From Dictyoglomus sp. NZ13-RE01 (GTDB lineage Bacteria > Dictyoglomota > Dictyoglomia > Dictyoglomales > Dictyoglomaceae), in the NCBI GenBank assembly GCA_002878375.1, contig NIRF01000001.1:235931-299930 (forward strand): 64,000 bases of DNA, given 5' to 3'. The position numbers and the translations under genes are program-made. This document shows, piece by piece, positions 19,281 to 31,328 of this stretch. The notes under the pieces were generated by a model. The model was given only the letters and a program-made list of their open reading frames with translations. It was not told the DNA's origin and made no database searches. Position 1 is the stretch's first letter, and each line of letters opens with the position of its first letter.

Positions 19281-21665
19281 ATGGACGAACAAGAATTAAA
19301 AAATCTACCCGAAATTCCAGAGATATTGCCTATTTTGCCTCTAAGGGAAACTGTTGTCTACCCCCAAATGTTAATTCCGTTAGTTGTTGGAAGGGAGAAA
19401 AGCCTAAAGCTTATTGAGGATGCTGCAGCAGGGAATAAAATTATAGGACTTTGCATGCAGAAAACTCCTGTGGAAGAGCCCACTTACGATGATATACATA
19501 GAATAGGAACAGCTGGAATAATAGTAAGAATGTTAAGATTTCCAGACAATACTATAAGACTATTTGTCCAAGGTTTACAAAGAATAAAAATAGAAGAGTT
19601 TATACAGAGTGAGCCATACTTCAAAGCTAAAGTCTCTCTTATAAAAGAAACCTACGAAAAAACTATAGAAATAGAGGGAGCAATGAGAAATATTATCTCC
19701 CTCTTCCAAAGAATGGCATCCCTAATACCTCAATTCCCAGAAGAGCTTTTAATTAATGCAATGAACATTCAGGATCCAGGAAGATTAGCAGACTTCATTG
19801 CCTTTAATCTAAACATTAATGTAAATGAAAAGCAAGAAATTTTAGAAACCATAGATATTAAGGAGAGACTTCAAAAAGTTACCTTCTATCTCAATAGAGA
19901 AATAGAAATATTAGAAATAGCAAATAAAATTCAAAATGATGTTAAGAACGAGATAGAGAAAAGCCAAAGAGAATACTTCTTAAGACAACAAATGAAAGCT
20001 ATACAAAAGGAGTTAGGAGAAATTGATCCTCGTGAAATGGAGGTAAATGAACTAAGACAAAAATTACAAGAGGCAAAACTACCTCCAGAAGCAATGAAAG
20101 AGGCAGAAAGGGAATTAGAAAGACTTGCCCAGATGCCCCCAGGATCTGCCGAATACACTGTAACAAGAACTTACTTGGATTGGATGATTTCTCTACCTTG
20201 GAGTAAGAGTACTGTAGATAATTTAGATATACAAAAGGCGAAAGAAGTATTGGATGAAGATCATTATGATTTAGAAAAAGTAAAGGAAAGAATATTAGAA
20301 TACTTAGCGGTGAGAAAATTAAAAGAGGATATGAAAGGACCTATTCTTTGCTTTGTAGGACCCCCAGGAGTTGGTAAAACATCCTTAGGTAAATCTATAG
20401 CAAGAGCCTTAGGAAGAAAATTTGTAAGGATATCCTTAGGTGGAATAAGAGATGAGGCAGAGATAAGAGGTCATAGAAGAACATACGTTGGAGCATTACC
20501 AGGTAGAATAATACAAGGAATGAGAAAGGCGGAGTCAAACAATCCTGTATTTATGCTTGATGAAATTGACAAAATTGGTACAGACTTTAGAGGAGATCCT
20601 GCAGCAGCATTATTAGAAGTTTTAGATCCCGAACAGAATAATAGCTTTGTAGATAATTACTTAGGAGTTCCCTTTGATCTTTCTAAGGTAATGTTTATAG
20701 CAACTGCAAATGTGCTTTATACAATTCCTCCAGCTCTTTTAGATAGAATGGAGATCTTGGAGCTTCCAGGATATACTGAAATAGAAAAGATTGGAATTGC
20801 AAAGGGATTCCTTATCCCAAGACAATTAAAAGAACATGGTCTAAGTGAGGAACAACTTAGTTTTGAGGAAGATGCTATTAGAAAGATTATAAGAGAATAT
20901 ACAAGAGAAGCAGGGGTAAGAAACTTAGAGAGAGAAATAGCATCAATATGTAGAAAGGTTGCAAAAGGATATGCAGAGGGGAGTATTACTGAGAAAGTAG
21001 TTATTACTGAAGAGGAGATTCCTAAATATTTAGGTGTCCCAAAATATACATATGGCATGAAGGGAGAAAAAGACGAAATAGGAGTTGCTACAGGTTTAGC
21101 ATGGACTGAAGCTGGAGGAGACATCTTATTTGTAGAAGCATTGGTAGTTGAAGGAAGAGGTAATTTAATATTGACAGGTAAATTAGGAGAAGTAATGCAG
21201 GAGTCTGCCAAAGCGGCACTTTCTTATGTTAGATCAAAGGCAAAAGAGTTAAATATCAACTACGAAATCTTTGAAAAGTCAGATATACATATTCATGTGC
21301 CATCTGGTGCCATACCTAAGGATGGTCCATCCGCAGGAGTAACCATTGCAACTGCCCTTGCATCTGCTCTTACTAAAAGACCTGTCAAGAAAGATATTGG
21401 AATGACTGGTGAGATCACATTGAGAGGTAAAGTTCTTCCTGTAGGAGGAATTAGGGAGAAAGTTTTAGCAGCACATAGAGCAGGACTTTCCGCAGTAATT
21501 ATGCCTAAAGAAAATGAGAAGGACTTAGAAGAGATTCCAGAAATAGTAAGGAAAGAATTGAAGTTTTACTTTGTAGAGCATGCGGACGAGGTTTTAAATC
21601 TTGCCCTTTTGGAGGTGAAGGCGAGTGATACTGAAAGAAAGCCTGAGGAGGTTAGGGGATCTTAA
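19281..21665 (+). CDS. lon: ATP-dependent Lon protease (LonA)
   Basis: LON N-domain, Walker [10 protein letters not shown], protease Ser context PKDGPSAG and Lys context GGIREK. ATG 19281 follows AAGGAGG. The track start 19188 overlaps hsp20 and is rejected. Confidence 0.97.
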
Positions 21666-22728
21666 CTTTAGCCCCTACCTCATAACTTCCCTTTATCTAA
21701 ATATTTCACCTTTGGATTATCCGAAAGGTGAGTATAGGTTGATCTGGAAAAATTTTCAGAAGGAGATTGAAAAATACAACACAGAAGATAGAGATATAAA
21801 AATGTCTCTTCTTGGTGATGCGGAAAGAATATCACAATTTCTTGATCAGGAAATTACAACTCATGCAAATACTTTAGTATTTTTCTCCTGTAGTAGCAAA
21901 GATTGGTTTGAAGTTTATCCTTTGTATCCAAAATTAAAGTCAAAATTAGTTATAGATAAGGATCCATATACAAAACCTATTGCAAGGCTTCTTGCCTCCC
22001 AAAACCCATATTTAATATTACTTGTATCAAAAGATAAGGCACGAATATTTACATACTATTTAGGAGAGTTAAGCGAGGAAGAAGATGTAAGCACAGAAAT
22101 TCCAAAAAAACACAAACAGGGAGGATGGTCTGCAGCTACATGGCAGAGATGGCATGAAACTCATGTTACATGGCATCTTAAAGATGTTGTTGAACATACT
22201 TTAAAAATTGTTGACGATAAAAAAATAATTCTTGGAGGAACTCTTCCTACTATAGCAGAATTTAAAGATCTATTACCCAAATCACTATCAGAAAAGGTAG
22301 TTGGGGAATTTACTGTAGAATTTGAAGCACCAATAAAAGAGGTATTAGAAAAAGCGGAAGAATTTATAGATAATTATGAGAAAAGAACAACTGAAGAATT
22401 AGTAGAAAGAATATATACTAATACGAAGAAAGGGAAAGAATCAACTTTTGGTTTAGACGAAGTCGCATATATGGTTTATCAAAATAGAGTACATACTTTA
22501 TTAGTAAGCGAAAATTTTGAGAAACCTGGTTATCAATGCCCTAAATGTTCCTTTATAAGCTCATACTTAGAAATTTGTTCATTTTGCAATGTTCCTATGG
22601 AAAAAAGAGCGGACATAGTAGATGAAACCATAGAGATGGCTATCAACAAAGATGCAAGATTAATATTCATAAAGGATCAAGAGTTAGGAAAGAAAATTGA
22701 AAATATAGGTGCTTTATTGAGGTTTTAA
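21625..22728 (+). CDS. Archaeo-eukaryotic release factor (eRF1/Pelota/Vms1-type) family protein, GGQ loop replaced by GGW, with a C-terminal-domain zinc ribbon
   Basis: 367 aa. [20 protein letters not shown] closely parallels the eRF1 GGQ loop KKHGRGGQSALRFARL. The eRF1 domain-3-like block is [27 protein letters not shown]-x12-CSFC forms the zinc ribbon. The GTG start is 9 nt after GGAGG (21611-21615) and overlaps the lon 3' end by 41 nt. Confidence 0.75.
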
Positions 22729-22756
22729 AAAAAGGGGGCAAAAATGCCCCCTTTTT

Positions 22757-22758
<2 letters not shown>
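22727..22758. terminator. Bidirectional intrinsic terminator
   Basis: A-run, stem GGGGGCA (22734-22740), loop AAAA, stem TGCCCCC (22745-22751), then T7 (22752-22758). It lies between the convergent aeRF1-like gene and gap. Confidence 0.85.
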
Positions 22759-23788
<1,030 letters not shown>

Positions 23789-26360: not shown

Positions 26361-29141
26361 TTAAAAGCCTTCTCCAACCCCAATCGTTAGATAGTAATTG
26401 CCATTTTCATTTGGATTTTTCAGCCCTTGATATACTGGAAAGGCATATCCTATATTCAAGGAAATAGGTAAATCAAGAAAAGTTGTGAAATTGTAACTAA
26501 GCTCAAAACCTAAACCTAATTTCAATCCCTTTTCATCTATCTTATCCTGTGTATTCCAAACTCCTCCCAACTCAGAAAACACTTTAAAATTCAAAGACCT
26601 AAAAATGAATAGGTTAAGAATTTTCATCTCTTGTTCTCTAATAATTGGTAAACTCCAAGTTGTTTTCAAAGTCCACTTAAAATTGCCAGTGTACTTATCT
26701 TTTAAAGACATCCAATCACTTAGATCAAAAATTTCATCTTCCGGAGAATTTACCGATGTATATCCTAATTTATTACTCACACTTAAATAGCTATGAGGAA
26801 AGACTAAGAAGAACTTATTTAAGGACCACTCAACCTTAATAAAGTTTTCTTGCTGGAAAGGGATAGAAGTTCTTATATGAAAATCATTTTGCATTGCTAA
26901 AGAATAATAGTCGTTAAGCTTAGAAATATTAACATCAAAATAGCCATAATTGATATATCCTAAGGTTAGTCTTAGTTGATAAGCAGGTTGCCACAAGTTT
27001 CCACTAACGCCAAGATCAAACTTCTGCCAGAAGTTTTTTGTTAATGAGGCTTCTCCTGCAAAATAGTTTGGATATATCCAGAGTAGTGAGAATGAAAAAT
27101 TATCATTTCTTGGTAGATATCTAACAAATTGGAAGAAAGTTCCTTGATATGTTTCTTCTTTATCCTGCAAATAAAAGCTCTCAAGACTCCACTTATGATC
27201 AATAGGATCGTACCCTTCTATATGATAGGAAAGGTATGATATCTGCCCTGTTGTAAGATCAATGAAAAATGATGGAATTAAATCATAGTATATGACATAT
27301 GCATCTAATGGTATTACTCTTTTTGATGTATAAATAATTTTTCTGGGCATTGAATTATTTAGTCTATTAATATCGGGGATTTTTGAATCAGGATCTAATA
27401 AAACCCTTACAACCTTTGATTTTGTTTGATAATTCAAATTCACATCCTTTTCATTTCCATAGTAGATATCCTTTACTTCTTCTCCATTCTCCAAAACAAG
27501 TAAAATCTCTACAGGAAGTATCCCCTCCCCTTCCCTTCTTATATGAATCTTTGTATTCCAGCCATCTAATGTGGGATAACTTGAAAAATCTAATACCTGC
27601 CAATCAATGGTAGCTGTAGAATAAAACCAGGTATTGAAAAATCCTGAGAAGTCTTTATGAGTAACCTCCTCCAAGATACTTTCAAAATCTTTTGTAGTTG
27701 CTAATTTCCCTTTATAACGTTCAAAGAATAATTTTAGCACATTATTAAATTTTTCCTCGCCTATTTCAAAAGCTAATGCCCTTAGTAAAAGATATGCCTT
27801 TCCATAAACTTTTGTTTCGTAACCATTATAGATACTATTCCAGTAATCTTTTACTATAGGTTCATCCCATTTATCCTTAACAGATAGTAAATAGGGAAGT
27901 TCTACTTGACTTTCCCTTAAGTTCCACTCCCCTAAAACATTATCCTTTAAATACTCCAAAAAGTAATCATCCCCTAAATCAGGAATAAGGTTTCCACCCT
28001 TTGATCCATATTTCTCCTCAAAATAATATATAGAGGAATACTGAGCAAAAGCTTCAGAAAGCCAATTCTCAGCATCAAAATCTGCTCCAACCCCAATTCC
28101 CCACCATAGATGGGCGATCTCATGAGCTAATAACCATTCATTTATTCTTTCTAATAAAAAGGGTGTAAATAAGTCTGATGAGTAAAAAATGCTATTTCCA
28201 AGAATAATTAATCCATCCGCTGTCATCCCCCAATATCCTTCAATCTGACCTTCTACAATTACAACTCTTTTATGACCTGATGGACCATATAGAGAAATAT
28301 ATTTATCCATTATCTCCCGGGCATAGGTTGCCAGAATTCTTGCCTTATACTCCCTTCCTGGATAGAAATATACTAATATTTCAGGATCTCTTTGAGATGG
28401 AAACTTATAAACTTGATAATTAGGACTTATTGCAATAGGCAAAGATCTTCTCGGACCATAATTTATACCTACTACTTTTTTCCATGAATCATCCGTAATC
28501 TCCTCTTTTTGTTCATCAACACCTAAAGCAACCTTATAATTCTTAGGAACCAAAAGTTCCACGCTAAAGTTGCAGGAAACAAGTCTTCCTCCTTTATCCC
28601 ATTCCCCATCGCTAAAGTAAAGTTCTTGTGGAAACCAACCAAATCTCCAAACAAAGGAATCTTTTGCAAAGGAATTATCCCCAAAATATGCTCTTGGGAA
28701 TTTTGTGGAAAAGAGGATCTTTAGAGTAAAAGATTTTCCAGGTAAAAGTGGGTATGGAAGTATTACTTTAAGATAGTTGTCTTCCAATGAGTAATTGGAG
28801 AATAAAATTTTACCTTTCTCATAGCTATAATTTAGAGGAATTCCATCTTTATCAAAAACATTTTTTACCTCCGTATAGCCTGGGTCAAAACCTCCAACAT
28901 AATTAGGGTCCTGTAATACAGGGTTAATGTGTGGATTTTTCTCTTTTAAAAGATTCGCAGGAAGATAGAAATATATCTCCTTTAACTCTTGCGAAGTATT
29001 ATTGTAATAATCTACCTCTACATATCCACTAATTAAATAACTTTGAGGATTAAGCTGAGCAAATATCCTATAATTGGAAACCTGGGCATAAGCAGGTACA
29101 ATAAGAAAGATGAAAAAGATTATATAAACTAATTTTTTCAT
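26361..29141 (-). CDS. Secreted M1-family (gluzincin) peptidase domain fused to a C-terminal Omp85/BamA-like beta-barrel
   Basis: Signal peptide MKKLVYIIFFIFLIVPAYAQ. HEIAH (nt 28110-28124) with Glu exactly 18 residues later (WLSEAF) gives HEXXH-X18-E. The C-terminal roughly 300 aa is beta-strand-patterned: FSELGGVWN...GLKLGLGFELSY...ISLNIGYAFPV...YYLTIGVGEGF, ending in Phe like BamA/TpsB barrels. Confidence 0.7.
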   Translation of the reverse strand: MKKLVYIIFFIFLIVPAYAQVSNYRIFAQLNPQSYLISGYVEVDYYNNTSQELKEIYFYLPANLLKEKNPHINPVLQDPNYVGGFDPGYTEVKNVFDKDGIPLNYSYEKGKILFSNYSLEDNYLKVILPYPLLPGKSFTLKILFSTKFPRAYFGDNSFAKDSFVWRFGWFPQELYFSDGEWDKGGRLVSCNFSVELLVPKNYKVALGVDEQKEEITDDSWKKVVGINYGPRRSLPIAISPNYQVYKFPSQRDPEILVYFYPGREYKARILATYAREIMDKYISLYGPSGHKRVVIVEGQIEGYWGMTADGLIILGNSIFYSSDLFTPFLLERINEWLLAHEIAHLWWGIGVGADFDAENWLSEAFAQYSSIYYFEEKYGSKGGNLIPDLGDDYFLEYLKDNVLGEWNLRESQVELPYLLSVKDKWDEPIVKDYWNSIYNGYETKVYGKAYLLLRALAFEIGEEKFNNVLKLFFERYKGKLATTKDFESILEEVTHKDFSGFFNTWFYSTATIDWQVLDFSSYPTLDGWNTKIHIRREGEGILPVEILLVLENGEEVKDIYYGNEKDVNLNYQTKSKVVRVLLDPDSKIPDINRLNNSMPRKIIYTSKRVIPLDAYVIYYDLIPSFFIDLTTGQISYLSYHIEGYDPIDHKWSLESFYLQDKEETYQGTFFQFVRYLPRNDNFSFSLLWIYPNYFAGEASLTKNFWQKFDLGVSGNLWQPAYQLRLTLGYINYGYFDVNISKLNDYYSLAMQNDFHIRTSIPFQQENFIKVEWSLNKFFLVFPHSYLSVSNKLGYTSVNSPEDEIFDLSDWMSLKDKYTGNFKWTLKTTWSLPIIREQEMKILNLFIFRSLNFKVFSELGGVWNTQDKIDEKGLKLGLGFELSYNFTTFLDLPISLNIGYAFPVYQGLKNPNENGNYYLTIGVGEGF

Positions 29142-29146
29142 ATCTT

Positions 29147-30439
29147 CTATACTCCTCCTACAGTAGATTTTTTACCCTTAAATCTAAGTTTCATGGTTAA
29201 AATTCTATCTGTAGAGAAGATCTTACTTGCAATTAGTATCAAAATAGCAAAAACAACAAGCATATAAATGATCCCATAATATACAATGGAGTAATTACCA
29301 AGAAGTACATTTTGAGATGCAATAAAAGGATGACTAAAAGGAATTATCCAAACTAATATCTTTAGAGGAAGAGATAAAGAGTTTATATCCGAGAACAAAG
29401 AAAGAAAATAAGGAATGATAACGAGGAATGTCAATGGTAAACTGGCACTCTGAGCACTCTTAAGGTCCTCCGCCAGTACTCCTAAAATAGTAGAAAGAGC
29501 TAATGCACATAATATAGCTAAAAACAATGAAATGCCCAATAAAACATAACCTTCGGTGGTGAATTGTAGCCCTAACTTTTGTGCCACCCCCTTTATTTGA
29601 TCACTTACACTAATATCTCCCATAAAACCACCCATATAGAATCTAAATCCAAACATATAAATTCCAGCGGATATTAATCCTACAAGTCCTGCTCCAATCA
29701 TTTTTGCTACAACAATCTGACTTCTACTTATAGGAACAGTAAGAAGGGTTTCTAAGGTTTTGTCCTGTTTCTCCATGGCAATGGCGGAAAGTACCATTTG
29801 AGAAGAATACATTATAACCATCATAAGAATAATTGGTATAAATACTGACTGAGAATAAACAAAACTACTTACAGCCCCTGCTGAACCTTCTGCTACTTTA
29901 TCTTTTACTATTACAAATTCTTTAGTCTTTATAGGATTCTTCAGATTATCTGGGTCAATATCGGGAAACTTTTCTTTTATGAAATTGTCGGATAAATATC
30001 TATTAATTGCTGAAATTACTTCATTTACAATAGAAGAGCTAACAGAAGAACTAAGAGAAAGGCTACGTATAAAAGAATAAGTCTCAATCTCTTTTAACTG
30101 AAATTTTGATATACCTGAGGCAAATCCTTCAGGTATTATTAATAGGAAATCAATTTTATTTTCTTTTGCATAACTTATAGCAGATTCTCTATCCTTTTCC
30201 TTTAATAAATGAATCTTGAAATTGGCAAAGGATAGATTGTTTAAGATATCTTCAGAAAGCTTTGATTTATCCAAATCAAGAACATATATATCTCTAAAAC
30301 TTATTGCCTTCTTTGTCTCCGTTTTTACTAATGAGCCCATAAAATAAAAGAGAGCAATAGTAAAAAGCAGAGAGAAAATTAATTGAGGTGTAATTAACTC
30401 CCTTATCTCTTTTCTTATGAGATTTAAAAACTTTCTCAT
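29147..30439 (-). CDS. ABC-2 type transporter permease (NatB-like) with a large extracytoplasmic loop
   Basis: 430 aa. One N-terminal TM, a soluble loop of about 150 aa, then 5 clustered TM helices. 4-nt overlap with the ATPase gene. Confidence 0.8.
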   Translation of the reverse strand: MRKFLNLIRKEIRELITPQLIFSLLFTIALFYFMGSLVKTETKKAISFRDIYVLDLDKSKLSEDILNNLSFANFKIHLLKEKDRESAISYAKENKIDFLLIIPEGFASGISKFQLKEIETYSFIRSLSLSSSVSSSIVNEVISAINRYLSDNFIKEKFPDIDPDNLKNPIKTKEFVIVKDKVAEGSAGAVSSFVYSQSVFIPIILMMVIMYSSQMVLSAIAMEKQDKTLETLLTVPISRSQIVVAKMIGAGLVGLISAGIYMFGFRFYMGGFMGDISVSDQIKGVAQKLGLQFTTEGYVLLGISLFLAILCALALSTILGVLAEDLKSAQSASLPLTFLVIIPYFLSLFSDINSLSLPLKILVWIIPFSHPFIASQNVLLGNYSIVYYGIIYMLVVFAILILIASKIFSTDRILTMKLRFKGKKSTVGGV

Positions 30440-31158
30440 GCTACTATCCTCCTAAATACTTCCTCTAAATTTCTTGAATTATATTTCTCTTTTAATTCCT
30501 GAGGGGTACCCACATCTAAAATTTTTCCTTTATCAATAATTGCAACCCTGTCAGAAAGAAACTCTATCTCTAACATGTTATGAGAAGATAGAAGTACAGA
30601 TACTCCTTCTTCAACAAACTTTCTAATAATCTCTCTTATCTCAAGAGAATTAATAACATCCAATCCTGAGGTCGGCTCATCTAAAATTGCAAGCTTTGGC
30701 TTTATCATTAATGCTCTTGCAAGTAATAATTTTCTCACCATTCCTTTACTATAGGTCCCAACTTTATCCTTTAACCTATCCCCCAAACTTGCAATTTTCT
30801 TTGCTCTCTCAACAAACTCTTCTACCTCTCTACTATCTTGAGCATAAAAATTTGCCATAAACCGTAAATATTCAATTCCAGTCATATTTTTGTATGCTCC
30901 GGCTTCTTCAGGTAAATAACTTATTCCTTCTCTTATCTTCTCAGGATTTTTCTTTAAATCATAACCCATAAATTCAACTCTTCCATCAGAAGGGGTTAAA
31001 AGAGTTGCAATAATTCTTAGGGTTGTTGTTTTTCCTGCACCATTGGGACCAATAAGCGCAAAGATTTCACCTCTTTTTACTTCAAAACTGATCCCCTTCA
31101 AAGCCTCAAACTTTCCATAAGTTTTCTTAAGGTTTTCAACAATCAATATTTCATCCAC
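30436..31158 (-). CDS. ABC transporter ATP-binding protein (ABC-2 subfamily)
   Basis: Walker A GPNGAGKTT, signature YSKGMVRKL, Walker B LAILDEPTSGLD. Confidence 0.95.
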   Translation of the reverse strand: MDEILIVENLKKTYGKFEALKGISFEVKRGEIFALIGPNGAGKTTTLRIIATLLTPSDGRVEFMGYDLKKNPEKIREGISYLPEEAGAYKNMTGIEYLRFMANFYAQDSREVEEFVERAKKIASLGDRLKDKVGTYSKGMVRKLLLARALMIKPKLAILDEPTSGLDVINSLEIREIIRKFVEEGVSVLLSSHNMLEIEFLSDRVAIIDKGKILDVGTPQELKEKYNSRNLEEVFRRIVA

Positions 31159-31262: not shown

Positions 31263-31317
31263 ATTGCAAAAGATTTGCAATTATCTTAAAATAATTAATG
31301 AAAAAAAAATTTGCAAT
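31263..31317. promoter_or_regulatory. Candidate Fur-family operator in the fur-feoABC promoter region
   Basis: 19-bp palindrome ATTGCAA-aagat-TTGCAAT (31263-31281), plus a third TTGCAAT half-site (31311-31317) immediately before the fur RBS. Confidence 0.45.
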
Positions 31318-31328
31318 AAGGAGAGCCT

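Follow-up and report, generated by a model that had tools for sequence, protein, structure and literature searches.

A putative outer-membrane-anchored M1 metallopeptidase of Dictyoglomus carries a divergent Omp85-superfamily barrel

What does a large secreted protein do when its gene closes a tight array behind an exporter, and does it belong to that exporter at all? The question is raised by three minus-strand genes in a 64,000-nucleotide stretch of DNA from Dictyoglomus sp. NZ13-RE01 (the window, to which all coordinates below refer unless another locus is named), which encode an ATP-binding cassette (ABC) transporter ATP-binding subunit, an ABC-2 permease, and a 926-aa protein (26361..29141, minus strand, stop codon included). 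An earlier note on this DNA had read the 926-aa product as an M1 metallopeptidase fused to an Omp85-like barrel and had proposed that exporter and barrel form an envelope-spanning system, in which the peptidase is displayed or secreted in the manner of a type Vd autotransporter. The reading that we favor with moderate confidence is that the protein represents an uncharacterized family of M1-type zinc metallopeptidases that are anchored in the outer membrane by a 16-stranded Omp85 barrel and face the periplasm, and that the ABC pair is separate. The protein, 926-aa secreted M1-like metallopeptidase and Omp85-superfamily barrel in one chain, has a counterpart of 100% identity in the databases, a hypothetical protein from Dictyoglomus sp. 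NZ13-RE01, and this entry together with ∼75 full-length homologues (E 0 to 1e-75) removes any concern that the open reading frame arose by chance. The homologues span 860 to 1026 aa and were used in an alignment of 76 sequences (A1); those with a named source come from Dictyoglomaceae, Bipolaricaulota, and Thermotogota.

The N-terminal half has the features of an exported peptidase. Residues 1 to 19 (MKKLVYIIFFIFLIVPAYA; 29085..29141, minus strand) form a signal peptide and are the sole hydrophobic segment of the protein; from hydropathy, cleavage is predicted between AYA and the Gln that follows, and signal-like segments recur at the N-termini of the homologues. Residues 20 to 582 (27396..29084, minus strand) constitute an M1 aminopeptidase-like module with domains I to III, as judged by Foldseek, Pfam PF01433, and PDB profile matches. 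The Pfam Peptidase_M1 model matched with an E value of 4.4e-15 and 56.3 bits (cut-off 27.7), and Foldseek comparison to the PDB retrieved IRAP, ERAP1/2, and aminopeptidase N with E 1e-26 over ∼600 aligned columns, in agreement with the thermolysin-like M1 fold with its N-terminal β domain and domain III. M1 enzymes also have a helical domain IV, which the window protein lacks. The zinc site, HEIAH-X18-E (residues 340–363; 28053..28124, minus strand), aligned with the HEXXH-E residues of solved M1 enzymes, and its H340, E341, H344, and E363 were invariant in the 76 sequences. The signal peptide and HEXXH-X18-E site described in the earlier note are both upheld. Also invariant were Y446, K448, and Y450, which align with the YSKG or YGKG of solved M1 enzymes (the catalytic Tyr, in a Y-x-K-G setting).

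One hallmark of the classical enzymes is missing. The GAMEN (GXMEN) motif of M1 enzymes holds the free amino terminus of the substrate. When the family was aligned by HMMER to the solved M1 enzymes 4kx7 and 3q7j, this motif was not found; the consensus in its place is GMxAD, and the window protein has W-G-M-T-A. The Glu that binds the free amino group of the substrate is accordingly missing, and the specificity probably differs from that of classical aminopeptidases. Judged from the conserved residues, the M1 module is probably catalytically active, though not necessarily as a classical aminopeptidase. The M1 enzymes PepN, ERAP1/2, IRAP, and tricorn factor F3, as well as short M1 aminopeptidases, share with the window protein domains I to III, the HEXXH-X18-E site, and the catalytic Tyr; the window protein differs from the classical members in lacking GAMEN, in having a membrane barrel in place of helical domain IV, and in being exported.

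The C-terminal region (residues 616–926; 26364..27296, minus strand; ending in GVGEGF) corresponds to a 16-stranded Omp85-superfamily β-barrel, a relationship that was revealed only by fold comparison and profile-profile comparison, as direct sequence searches were empty. No Pfam or NCBIfam model matched residues 596 to 926, hmmscan of 31 barrel segments (the window protein and 30 homologues) gave no match to Omp85 (PF01103) even at E ≤ 10, and a search of PDB sequences with the barrel profile returned no match. Structures were predicted by AlphaFold2, the full-length protein from A1 and the barrel alone from alignment A2; the barrel was modeled separately because matches to the M1 part predominated when the whole protein was used in the fold search. 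The full-length model had a predicted local distance difference test score (pLDDT) of 93.6 and a predicted template modeling score (pTM) of 0.92, and the barrel-only model (pLDDT 90.6) possessed 16 long antiparallel strands by DSSP, with the kinked first strand counted once. All of the 50 best PDB fold matches to this barrel (50/50) were Omp85-superfamily proteins (TamA, Sam50, BamA, and FhaC), led by TamA with E 1.8e-6 and a template modeling (TM) score of 0.52.

Sequence intermediates connected the barrel to the same superfamily. When 1.84 billion representative proteins were searched exhaustively by HMMER with a profile of the barrel, only 164 matched, of which weaker ones, differing in length, passed the Pfam Omp85 threshold across the same region; several of these also bear Peptidase_M1, Peptidase_MA_2, or PD40 repeats. 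Twelve Pfam-Omp85-positive intermediates were aligned (A3) and displayed the motifs F.LGG...LRGY, EYRFPL, F.DAG..W, and a terminal GQSF. By hhalign, A3 matched the window barrel family with 99.1% probability (E 1.8e-18, 169 columns), and it matched solved BamA and TamA sequences with E 1e-12 to 1e-13. Strands β7 to β16 have one strongly hydrophobic face, as would be the case for a lipid-exposed barrel, and the end of the protein, YYLTIGVGEGF, fits a C-terminal β-signal, which closes with an aromatic or hydrophobic residue; of the 76 family members, 31 end in Phe and 22 in Leu. The terminal segments that had first drawn attention to a barrel (FSELGGVWN, ISLNIGYAFPV, and YYLTIGVGEGF among four) coincide with β13 to β16 of the model. 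The predicted structure and the profile alignments both identify the C-terminal domain as a divergent barrel of the Omp85 superfamily. An outer membrane to receive it is consistent with the Gram-negative staining of Dictyoglomus, a diderm genus with two BamA genes, TamB, Skp, and lipid A genes (PMC5167688).

Module and barrel are joined by a conserved linker (residues 583–615; 27297..27395, minus strand) that carries the motifs DPxxxxPDxNRLNNxxPRK and PLDAY. Its residues D583, D590, R593, N596, and P599 are invariant in A1, and the same motif is found in the canonical M1-Omp85 relatives described below. The linker was ordered only in the full-length model, with pLDDT values of 94 to 96 versus 51 to 61 in the barrel-only model. 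No POTRA domain was matched by Pfam in the 926-aa protein. A cryptic POTRA was considered and rejected on the basis of the model secondary structure, in which residues 512 to 582 are the β-sandwich domain III of the M1 module and residues 583 to 615 do not show the β-α-α-β-β pattern. The HMM searches that had been suggested for this protein thus yielded the Peptidase_M1 match and neither a direct Omp85 nor a POTRA match, and the AlphaFold model gave the strand count of 16 with no hidden POTRA.

A second Omp85 hallmark is degenerate. In Omp85 proteins, the Arg of a (L/M/V)RG(F/Y/W) motif in loop 6 pairs with the Asp of FxDxG in β13 to form the lid-lock (PMC11358297). Column mapping by hhalign located the loop 6 equivalent at residues 796 to 820 (26682..26756, minus strand), a 25-residue loop between β11 and β12, and placed FSELGGVW on β13. 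At the corresponding positions, the window protein has W-M-S-L in loop 6 and F-S-E-L-G in β13, with Met for the conserved Arg and Glu for the conserved Asp, and the lid-lock signature is thus absent. Within the family, 46 of the 76 sequences have a basic residue (R, K, or H) at the loop 6 position, and 16 of the 76 have Glu at the β13 position, where Asp is not among the tallied residues.

The window protein has a large set of relatives in which both domains are recognized by Pfam. One intermediate, P0244 (936 aa, with HETGH at 341, LRGY at 825, and FFDAGSAW at 872), matches the window protein in layout. Searching with P0244 returned at least 244 protein clusters at E ≤ 1e-10; among the matches listed, 120 of 120 carry PF01433 together with PF01103. 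The named relatives are mostly Candidatus Omnitrophota, and their source labels read “M1 family aminopeptidase” or “BamA/TamA family outer membrane protein.” A profile of 25 P0244 relatives (A4) aligned with the A1 profile with 100% probability (E 7e-114) over 837 collinear columns that cover the M1 domains, the linker motif DPxxxxxDxxRxNNxxPR, and the barrel, and this collinear match across all three parts argues that the fusion arose only once. According to these profiles, the window protein is a branch of the family whose barrel has drifted below Pfam detection. The fusion proposed in the earlier note is therefore substantiated by the fold matches, the barrel-profile alignment, and the full-length match to a family that carries both Pfam domains. 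Its accompanying remark that no described M1-Omp85 fusion was known to its author holds for the open-access literature, where we found no description of a fusion of M1 or another aminopeptidase to Omp85, and does not hold for the databases, given the number of clusters recovered. The architecture is already visible in public annotation, and the window gene is a divergent member with a previously unrecognized barrel.

The Omnitrophota proteins resemble the window protein in size (∼930–945 aa), in the signal peptide, in the HEXXH-X18-E site at ∼340, in lacking GAMEN, in the DPxxxxxDxxRxNNxxPR linker, and in the C-terminal barrel with its terminal Phe. They differ in having GYGGxQxSG at the GAMEN position, the sequences are only ∼22% identical, and the gene neighborhoods are not the same. 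Whereas the Dictyoglomota/Bipolaricaulota/Thermotogota branch has lost the LRGY of loop 6 and the Asp of β13, the Omnitrophota relatives keep the lid-lock. Two Omnitrophota loci, L096 (1079–6019) and L097 (170–6011), encode an M1-Omp85 protein that is 43% identical to P0244; upstream, both have genes for a TPR/DUF3857/transglutaminase-core protein of ∼800 aa and an unannotated protein of ∼650 aa, and L097 has an M48 peptidase gene in addition. This arrangement may represent a conserved envelope-protease neighborhood. Another M1 plus Omp85 fusion, P0236 (NCBI HSV43934.1), comes from a metagenome-assembled genome labeled “Candidatus Bathyarchaeia archaeon,” and this archaeal assignment of a protein with an outer-membrane barrel most likely reflects misbinning.

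By definition, an Omp85 protein combines a barrel with POTRA domains, and work on the group has treated its members as insertases or translocases. PlpD of Pseudomonas aeruginosa, the type Vd protein, resembles the window protein in that an enzyme lies N-terminal to a 16-stranded Omp85 barrel; its enzyme is a patatin lipase and a POTRA domain separates enzyme from barrel, whereas the window protein has neither. Of the three elements of type Vd (a patatin passenger, one POTRA, and an Omp85 barrel), only the barrel is common to both. With the noNterm and “Metallo” Omp85 subfamilies and the TamA barrel, the window protein shares a minimal barrel of ∼310 residues without long surface loops and a non-POTRA N-terminus (PMC4104836), and TamA barrels are its best fold matches (TM ∼0.5). 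The “Metallo” class carries a PF00149 metallophosphoesterase, unlike the M1 module found here (PMC4104836). The survey of Omp85/TpsB proteins published by Heinz and Lithgow in 2014 lists ten subfamilies, including patatin, WD40, “Metallo,” and noNterm; it contains no M1 class and credits Thermotogae with BamA only (PMC4104836). PlpD showed that an Omp85 scaffold can carry an enzyme; the M1-Omp85 family adds a second and much larger module, a three-domain zinc peptidase attached without POTRA and present in at least four deep-branching phyla. Because the Pfam Omp85 model misses the Dictyoglomota/Bipolaricaulota/Thermotogota branch, surveys by domain that assign only BamA to these lineages undercount the Omp85 proteins they have. 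The family is a naturally occurring case in which to ask how an Omp85 barrel behaves when it has no POTRA and a degenerate lid-lock, and it would supply a thermostable candidate for structural work.

In the mechanism that we favor, the Sec system would export the 926-aa protein via its signal peptide, and the β-barrel assembly machinery (BAM) would insert the C-terminal barrel, with its last strand ending in Phe, into the outer membrane of Dictyoglomus. The 33-residue linker would tie M1 domains I to III to the periplasmic start of β1 and hold the module on the periplasmic face. There the module would cleave peptides or envelope proteins, with the barrel serving mainly as a membrane anchor. 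Loop 6 of Omp85 proteins is extracellular, and every solved member has β1 starting, and β16 ending, on the periplasmic side. Since the 25-residue loop maps to loop 6, strand parity is fixed and the start of β1 is predicted to be periplasmic. The linker is modeled confidently only when the M1 module is present, which suggests that it packs on that module rather than passing through the pore. From this topology, the model, and the conserved active-site residues, we infer the outer-membrane location, the periplasmic orientation, and the catalytic activity. A precedent is provided by PlpD, the nearest analogue in the literature, whose enzyme domain was long taken as secreted and has since been demonstrated to lie in the periplasm only (PMC11116518).

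We favor this periplasm-facing, outer-membrane-anchored peptidase over surface display or secretion, which we regard as unlikely. According to the latter explanation, the Omp85-type barrel would translocate the M1 module in the manner of an autotransporter, and the module would act on peptides outside the cell, for instance as a food supply for a fermentative thermophile. Some members of the superfamily (FhaC/TpsB) do translocate proteins, the lid-lock that closes BamA-type barrels is degenerate here, and the conserved 33-residue linker could in principle span the pore. The passenger, however, would be large, at ∼560 residues in three domains, and the protein has neither a POTRA domain nor a partner. 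The linker is disordered in the barrel-only model and is therefore apparently not in the lumen, and the homology-based topology puts the start of β1 on the periplasmic side. The type Vd comparison on which the idea of display was founded has also lost its force, as the window protein lacks both patatin and POTRA, the alignment to Omp85 puts the M1 module at the periplasmic end of β1, and the PlpD enzyme itself is periplasmic (PMC11116518).

Whether the peptidase works with the exporter can be judged from gene packing and from conservation. The ATP-binding subunit (30436..31158, minus strand; 240 aa, GTG start) matches Pfam ABC_tran with E 1.6e-31 and an NCBIfam DrrA-type subfamily with E 1e-72, the latter below that model's cut-off; a GGGGGAG ribosome-binding site was read upstream of its gene. 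The permease (29147..30439, minus strand; 430 aa) matches Pfam ABC2_membrane_3 with E 6.5e-40. By hydropathy, its first transmembrane segment (residues ∼14–39) is followed by an external loop of ∼150 aa, the next segment lies at ∼189, and the five segments after the loop bring the count to six. By Pfam and hydropathy the two proteins have the make-up of an ABC-2 type exporter, an ATPase together with an ABC-2 permease that has a large loop after its first transmembrane segment. The ATPase and permease genes overlap by 4 nt, and 5 nt separate the permease gene from the 926-aa open reading frame; these coordinates, the minus-strand array, and the large external loop of the permease are as given in the earlier note. 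The ribosome-binding site of the M1-barrel gene, GGAGGAG (29152..29158, minus strand), lies within the last codons of the permease gene and ends 10 nt upstream of the ATG at 29141. The M1-barrel gene is followed on the same strand by leucyl-tRNA synthetase (LeuRS) and then glyceraldehyde-3-phosphate dehydrogenase (GAPDH) genes, and the first terminator-like site occurs only past GAPDH. The three-gene packing fits co-transcription, which we infer from this arrangement.

A dedicated envelope-spanning system of the Dictyoglomaceae, in which the ABC-2 exporter delivers a peptide or lipopeptide to the periplasm and the outer-membrane-anchored M1 module processes this cargo, would account for such packing (overlap, short gap, a ribosome-binding site embedded in the permease coding sequence, and the lack of a terminator), and we consider it doubtful. 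It would operate like the ABC-2 permease-M1 fusions of other phyla, which the earlier note mentions; P0096 is an example of a fusion of ABC2_membrane_2 with Peptidase_M1. The order ATPase-permease-M1-barrel-LeuRS-GAPDH is kept within Dictyoglomaceae down to ∼52% identity; however, the whole neighborhood, from Fur-FeoAB to LeuRS-GAPDH-Lon, is syntenic in this family, so conserved gene order there says little. The presence of LeuRS and GAPDH on the same strand, with no intervening terminator, also weakens the case from packing. Outside Dictyoglomaceae, the barrel-bearing orthologue loci (∼14 from Bipolaricaulota/Thermotogota and two from Omnitrophota, ∼16 altogether) showed no adjacent ABC ATPase or permease, and in a phmmer scan of 88 loci the pair was directly beside an M1 relative only in Dictyoglomaceae. 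Conversely, the ABC pair occurs alone in Clostridiales-labeled and Caldisericota metagenome-assembled genomes (60–64% identity).

Tripartite envelope-spanning ABC export relies on an HlyD-type membrane-fusion adaptor and a TolC-type channel encoded with the transporter. Neither a membrane-fusion (HlyD-type) nor a TolC-type gene was found between 22 and 36 kb of the window, and the M1-barrel gene and the ABC pair each occur by themselves beyond Dictyoglomaceae. The pairing of exporter and barrel into one envelope-spanning machine, as first proposed, is consequently not supported: the packing remains compatible with co-transcription, and co-conservation fails outside this one lineage. Our reading of the comparative data is that the ATPase and ABC-2 permease would be a separate, widely conserved two-gene exporter that is joined with the peptidase gene in Dictyoglomaceae only, and that the exporter is probably a lineage-specific neighbor of the M1-barrel gene; the link should not be generalized. 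Conservation is far stronger in the permease, which has more than 1,200 matches, many of them 60 to 77% identical, than in the peptidase. In loci L092 to L095, from the Clostridiales-labeled and Caldisericota genomes, the ATPase-permease pair (60–67% identity) stands beside unrelated genes, which suggests that it has a housekeeping function or has spread horizontally between anaerobes. The ABC ATPases encoded close to M1 genes in Chloroflexi were rejected as support for an ABC-2/M1 association, as they belong to an ABC-3 (Znu-like) metal importer. In one such Chloroflexi genome (Anaerolineales; L066, 2299–7711), two tandem M1 genes encoding proteins of ∼510 to 530 aa follow the importer, which places a zinc or manganese uptake system beside zinc peptidases.

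We give a similarly small chance to the proposal that M1-Omp85 proteins are a new functional class of Omp85 in which the peptidase is mechanically coupled to the barrel, either as an outer-membrane quality-control protease on an insertase-like barrel or as a processing gate. In the latter version, the Dictyoglomaceae protein would act with the ABC-2 exporter, cleaving an exported peptide and passing it across the envelope, and the eroded lid-lock could mean an open pore. Still less probable, in our estimation, is that the barrel keeps a standard Omp85 activity (outer-membrane protein insertion or translocation) and that the M1 module replaces POTRA in substrate handling or quality control, as if BamA and BepA were fused into one unit for the degradation of stalled outer-membrane proteins. 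The canonical Omnitrophota relatives do retain an intact lid-lock and EYRFPL, as functional Omp85 barrels typically do, the genes upstream in L097 code for an M48 peptidase and TPR/transglutaminase-like proteins, and a role in periplasmic quality control has been suggested for enzyme-bearing Omp85 proteins by Heinz and Lithgow (PMC4104836). The branch that includes the window protein, in contrast, has lost the lid-lock residues, its barrel is minimal with short loops, and Dictyoglomus already has two BamA genes (PMC5167688). A soluble β-barrel substituting for M1 domain IV is unlikely in view of the Omp85 homology and the hydrophobic strand faces.

Several observations weigh against a periplasm-facing anchored peptidase that is independent of the exporter. 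The loss of GAMEN weakens any prediction of the substrate class of the M1 module. With the lid-lock eroded, the pore could be open and could allow translocation. The proposed orientation depends on homology-based topology together with model confidence values. Strands β2 to β5 are only weakly amphipathic; residues 633 to 690, which comprise them, do not have the clear hydrophobic/polar alternation seen in β7 to β16, and they might serve as an interface, for dimer formation or for contact with the M1 module, or lie in thinned membrane near the seam. Finally, two divergent M1-barrel genes in Dictyoglomaceae each follow genes for an ABC ATPase and membrane proteins with a 4-nt overlap in the array, and these paired arrays hint at a functional link to an exporter in this lineage, as the envelope-spanning explanation would have it. 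The second of these genes, in Dictyoglomaceae locus L007 (3379–8796), is 53% identical to that of the window and lies in a different array, in the order GntR, ABC ATPase, a 256-aa protein with ∼6 transmembrane segments, a 261-aa protein with ∼6 transmembrane segments, and the M1-barrel protein. The 261-aa protein, whose gene overlaps the M1-barrel gene by 4 nt, bears HEGGH and may be an intramembrane metalloprotease.

The remaining features of the region concern its regulation and surroundings. The ATPase gene and fur-feoA-feoB diverge from a 170-nt promoter region that contains the perfect inverted repeat TTGCAAA-N3-TTTGCAA (31264..31280, no strand assigned), a candidate operator with one match versus 0.03 expected. 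A second site, TGCAAA...TTTTCA, lies near 31300 to 31320, and both sites are kept in four other Dictyoglomaceae loci. The 31264–31280 repeat is probably a Fur-family operator, by prediction, and might also control the ABC/M1 array. A PADLOC scan gave no defense-system match for the peptidase or permease and generic matches for the ATPase. Elsewhere in the window, a 367-aa open reading frame (21625–22728, plus strand) has counterparts in related loci that are called baeRF_family10 (bacterial eRF1-like) and are situated between GAPDH and Lon, and a strong bidirectional terminator-like hairpin is found at 22726 to 22759.

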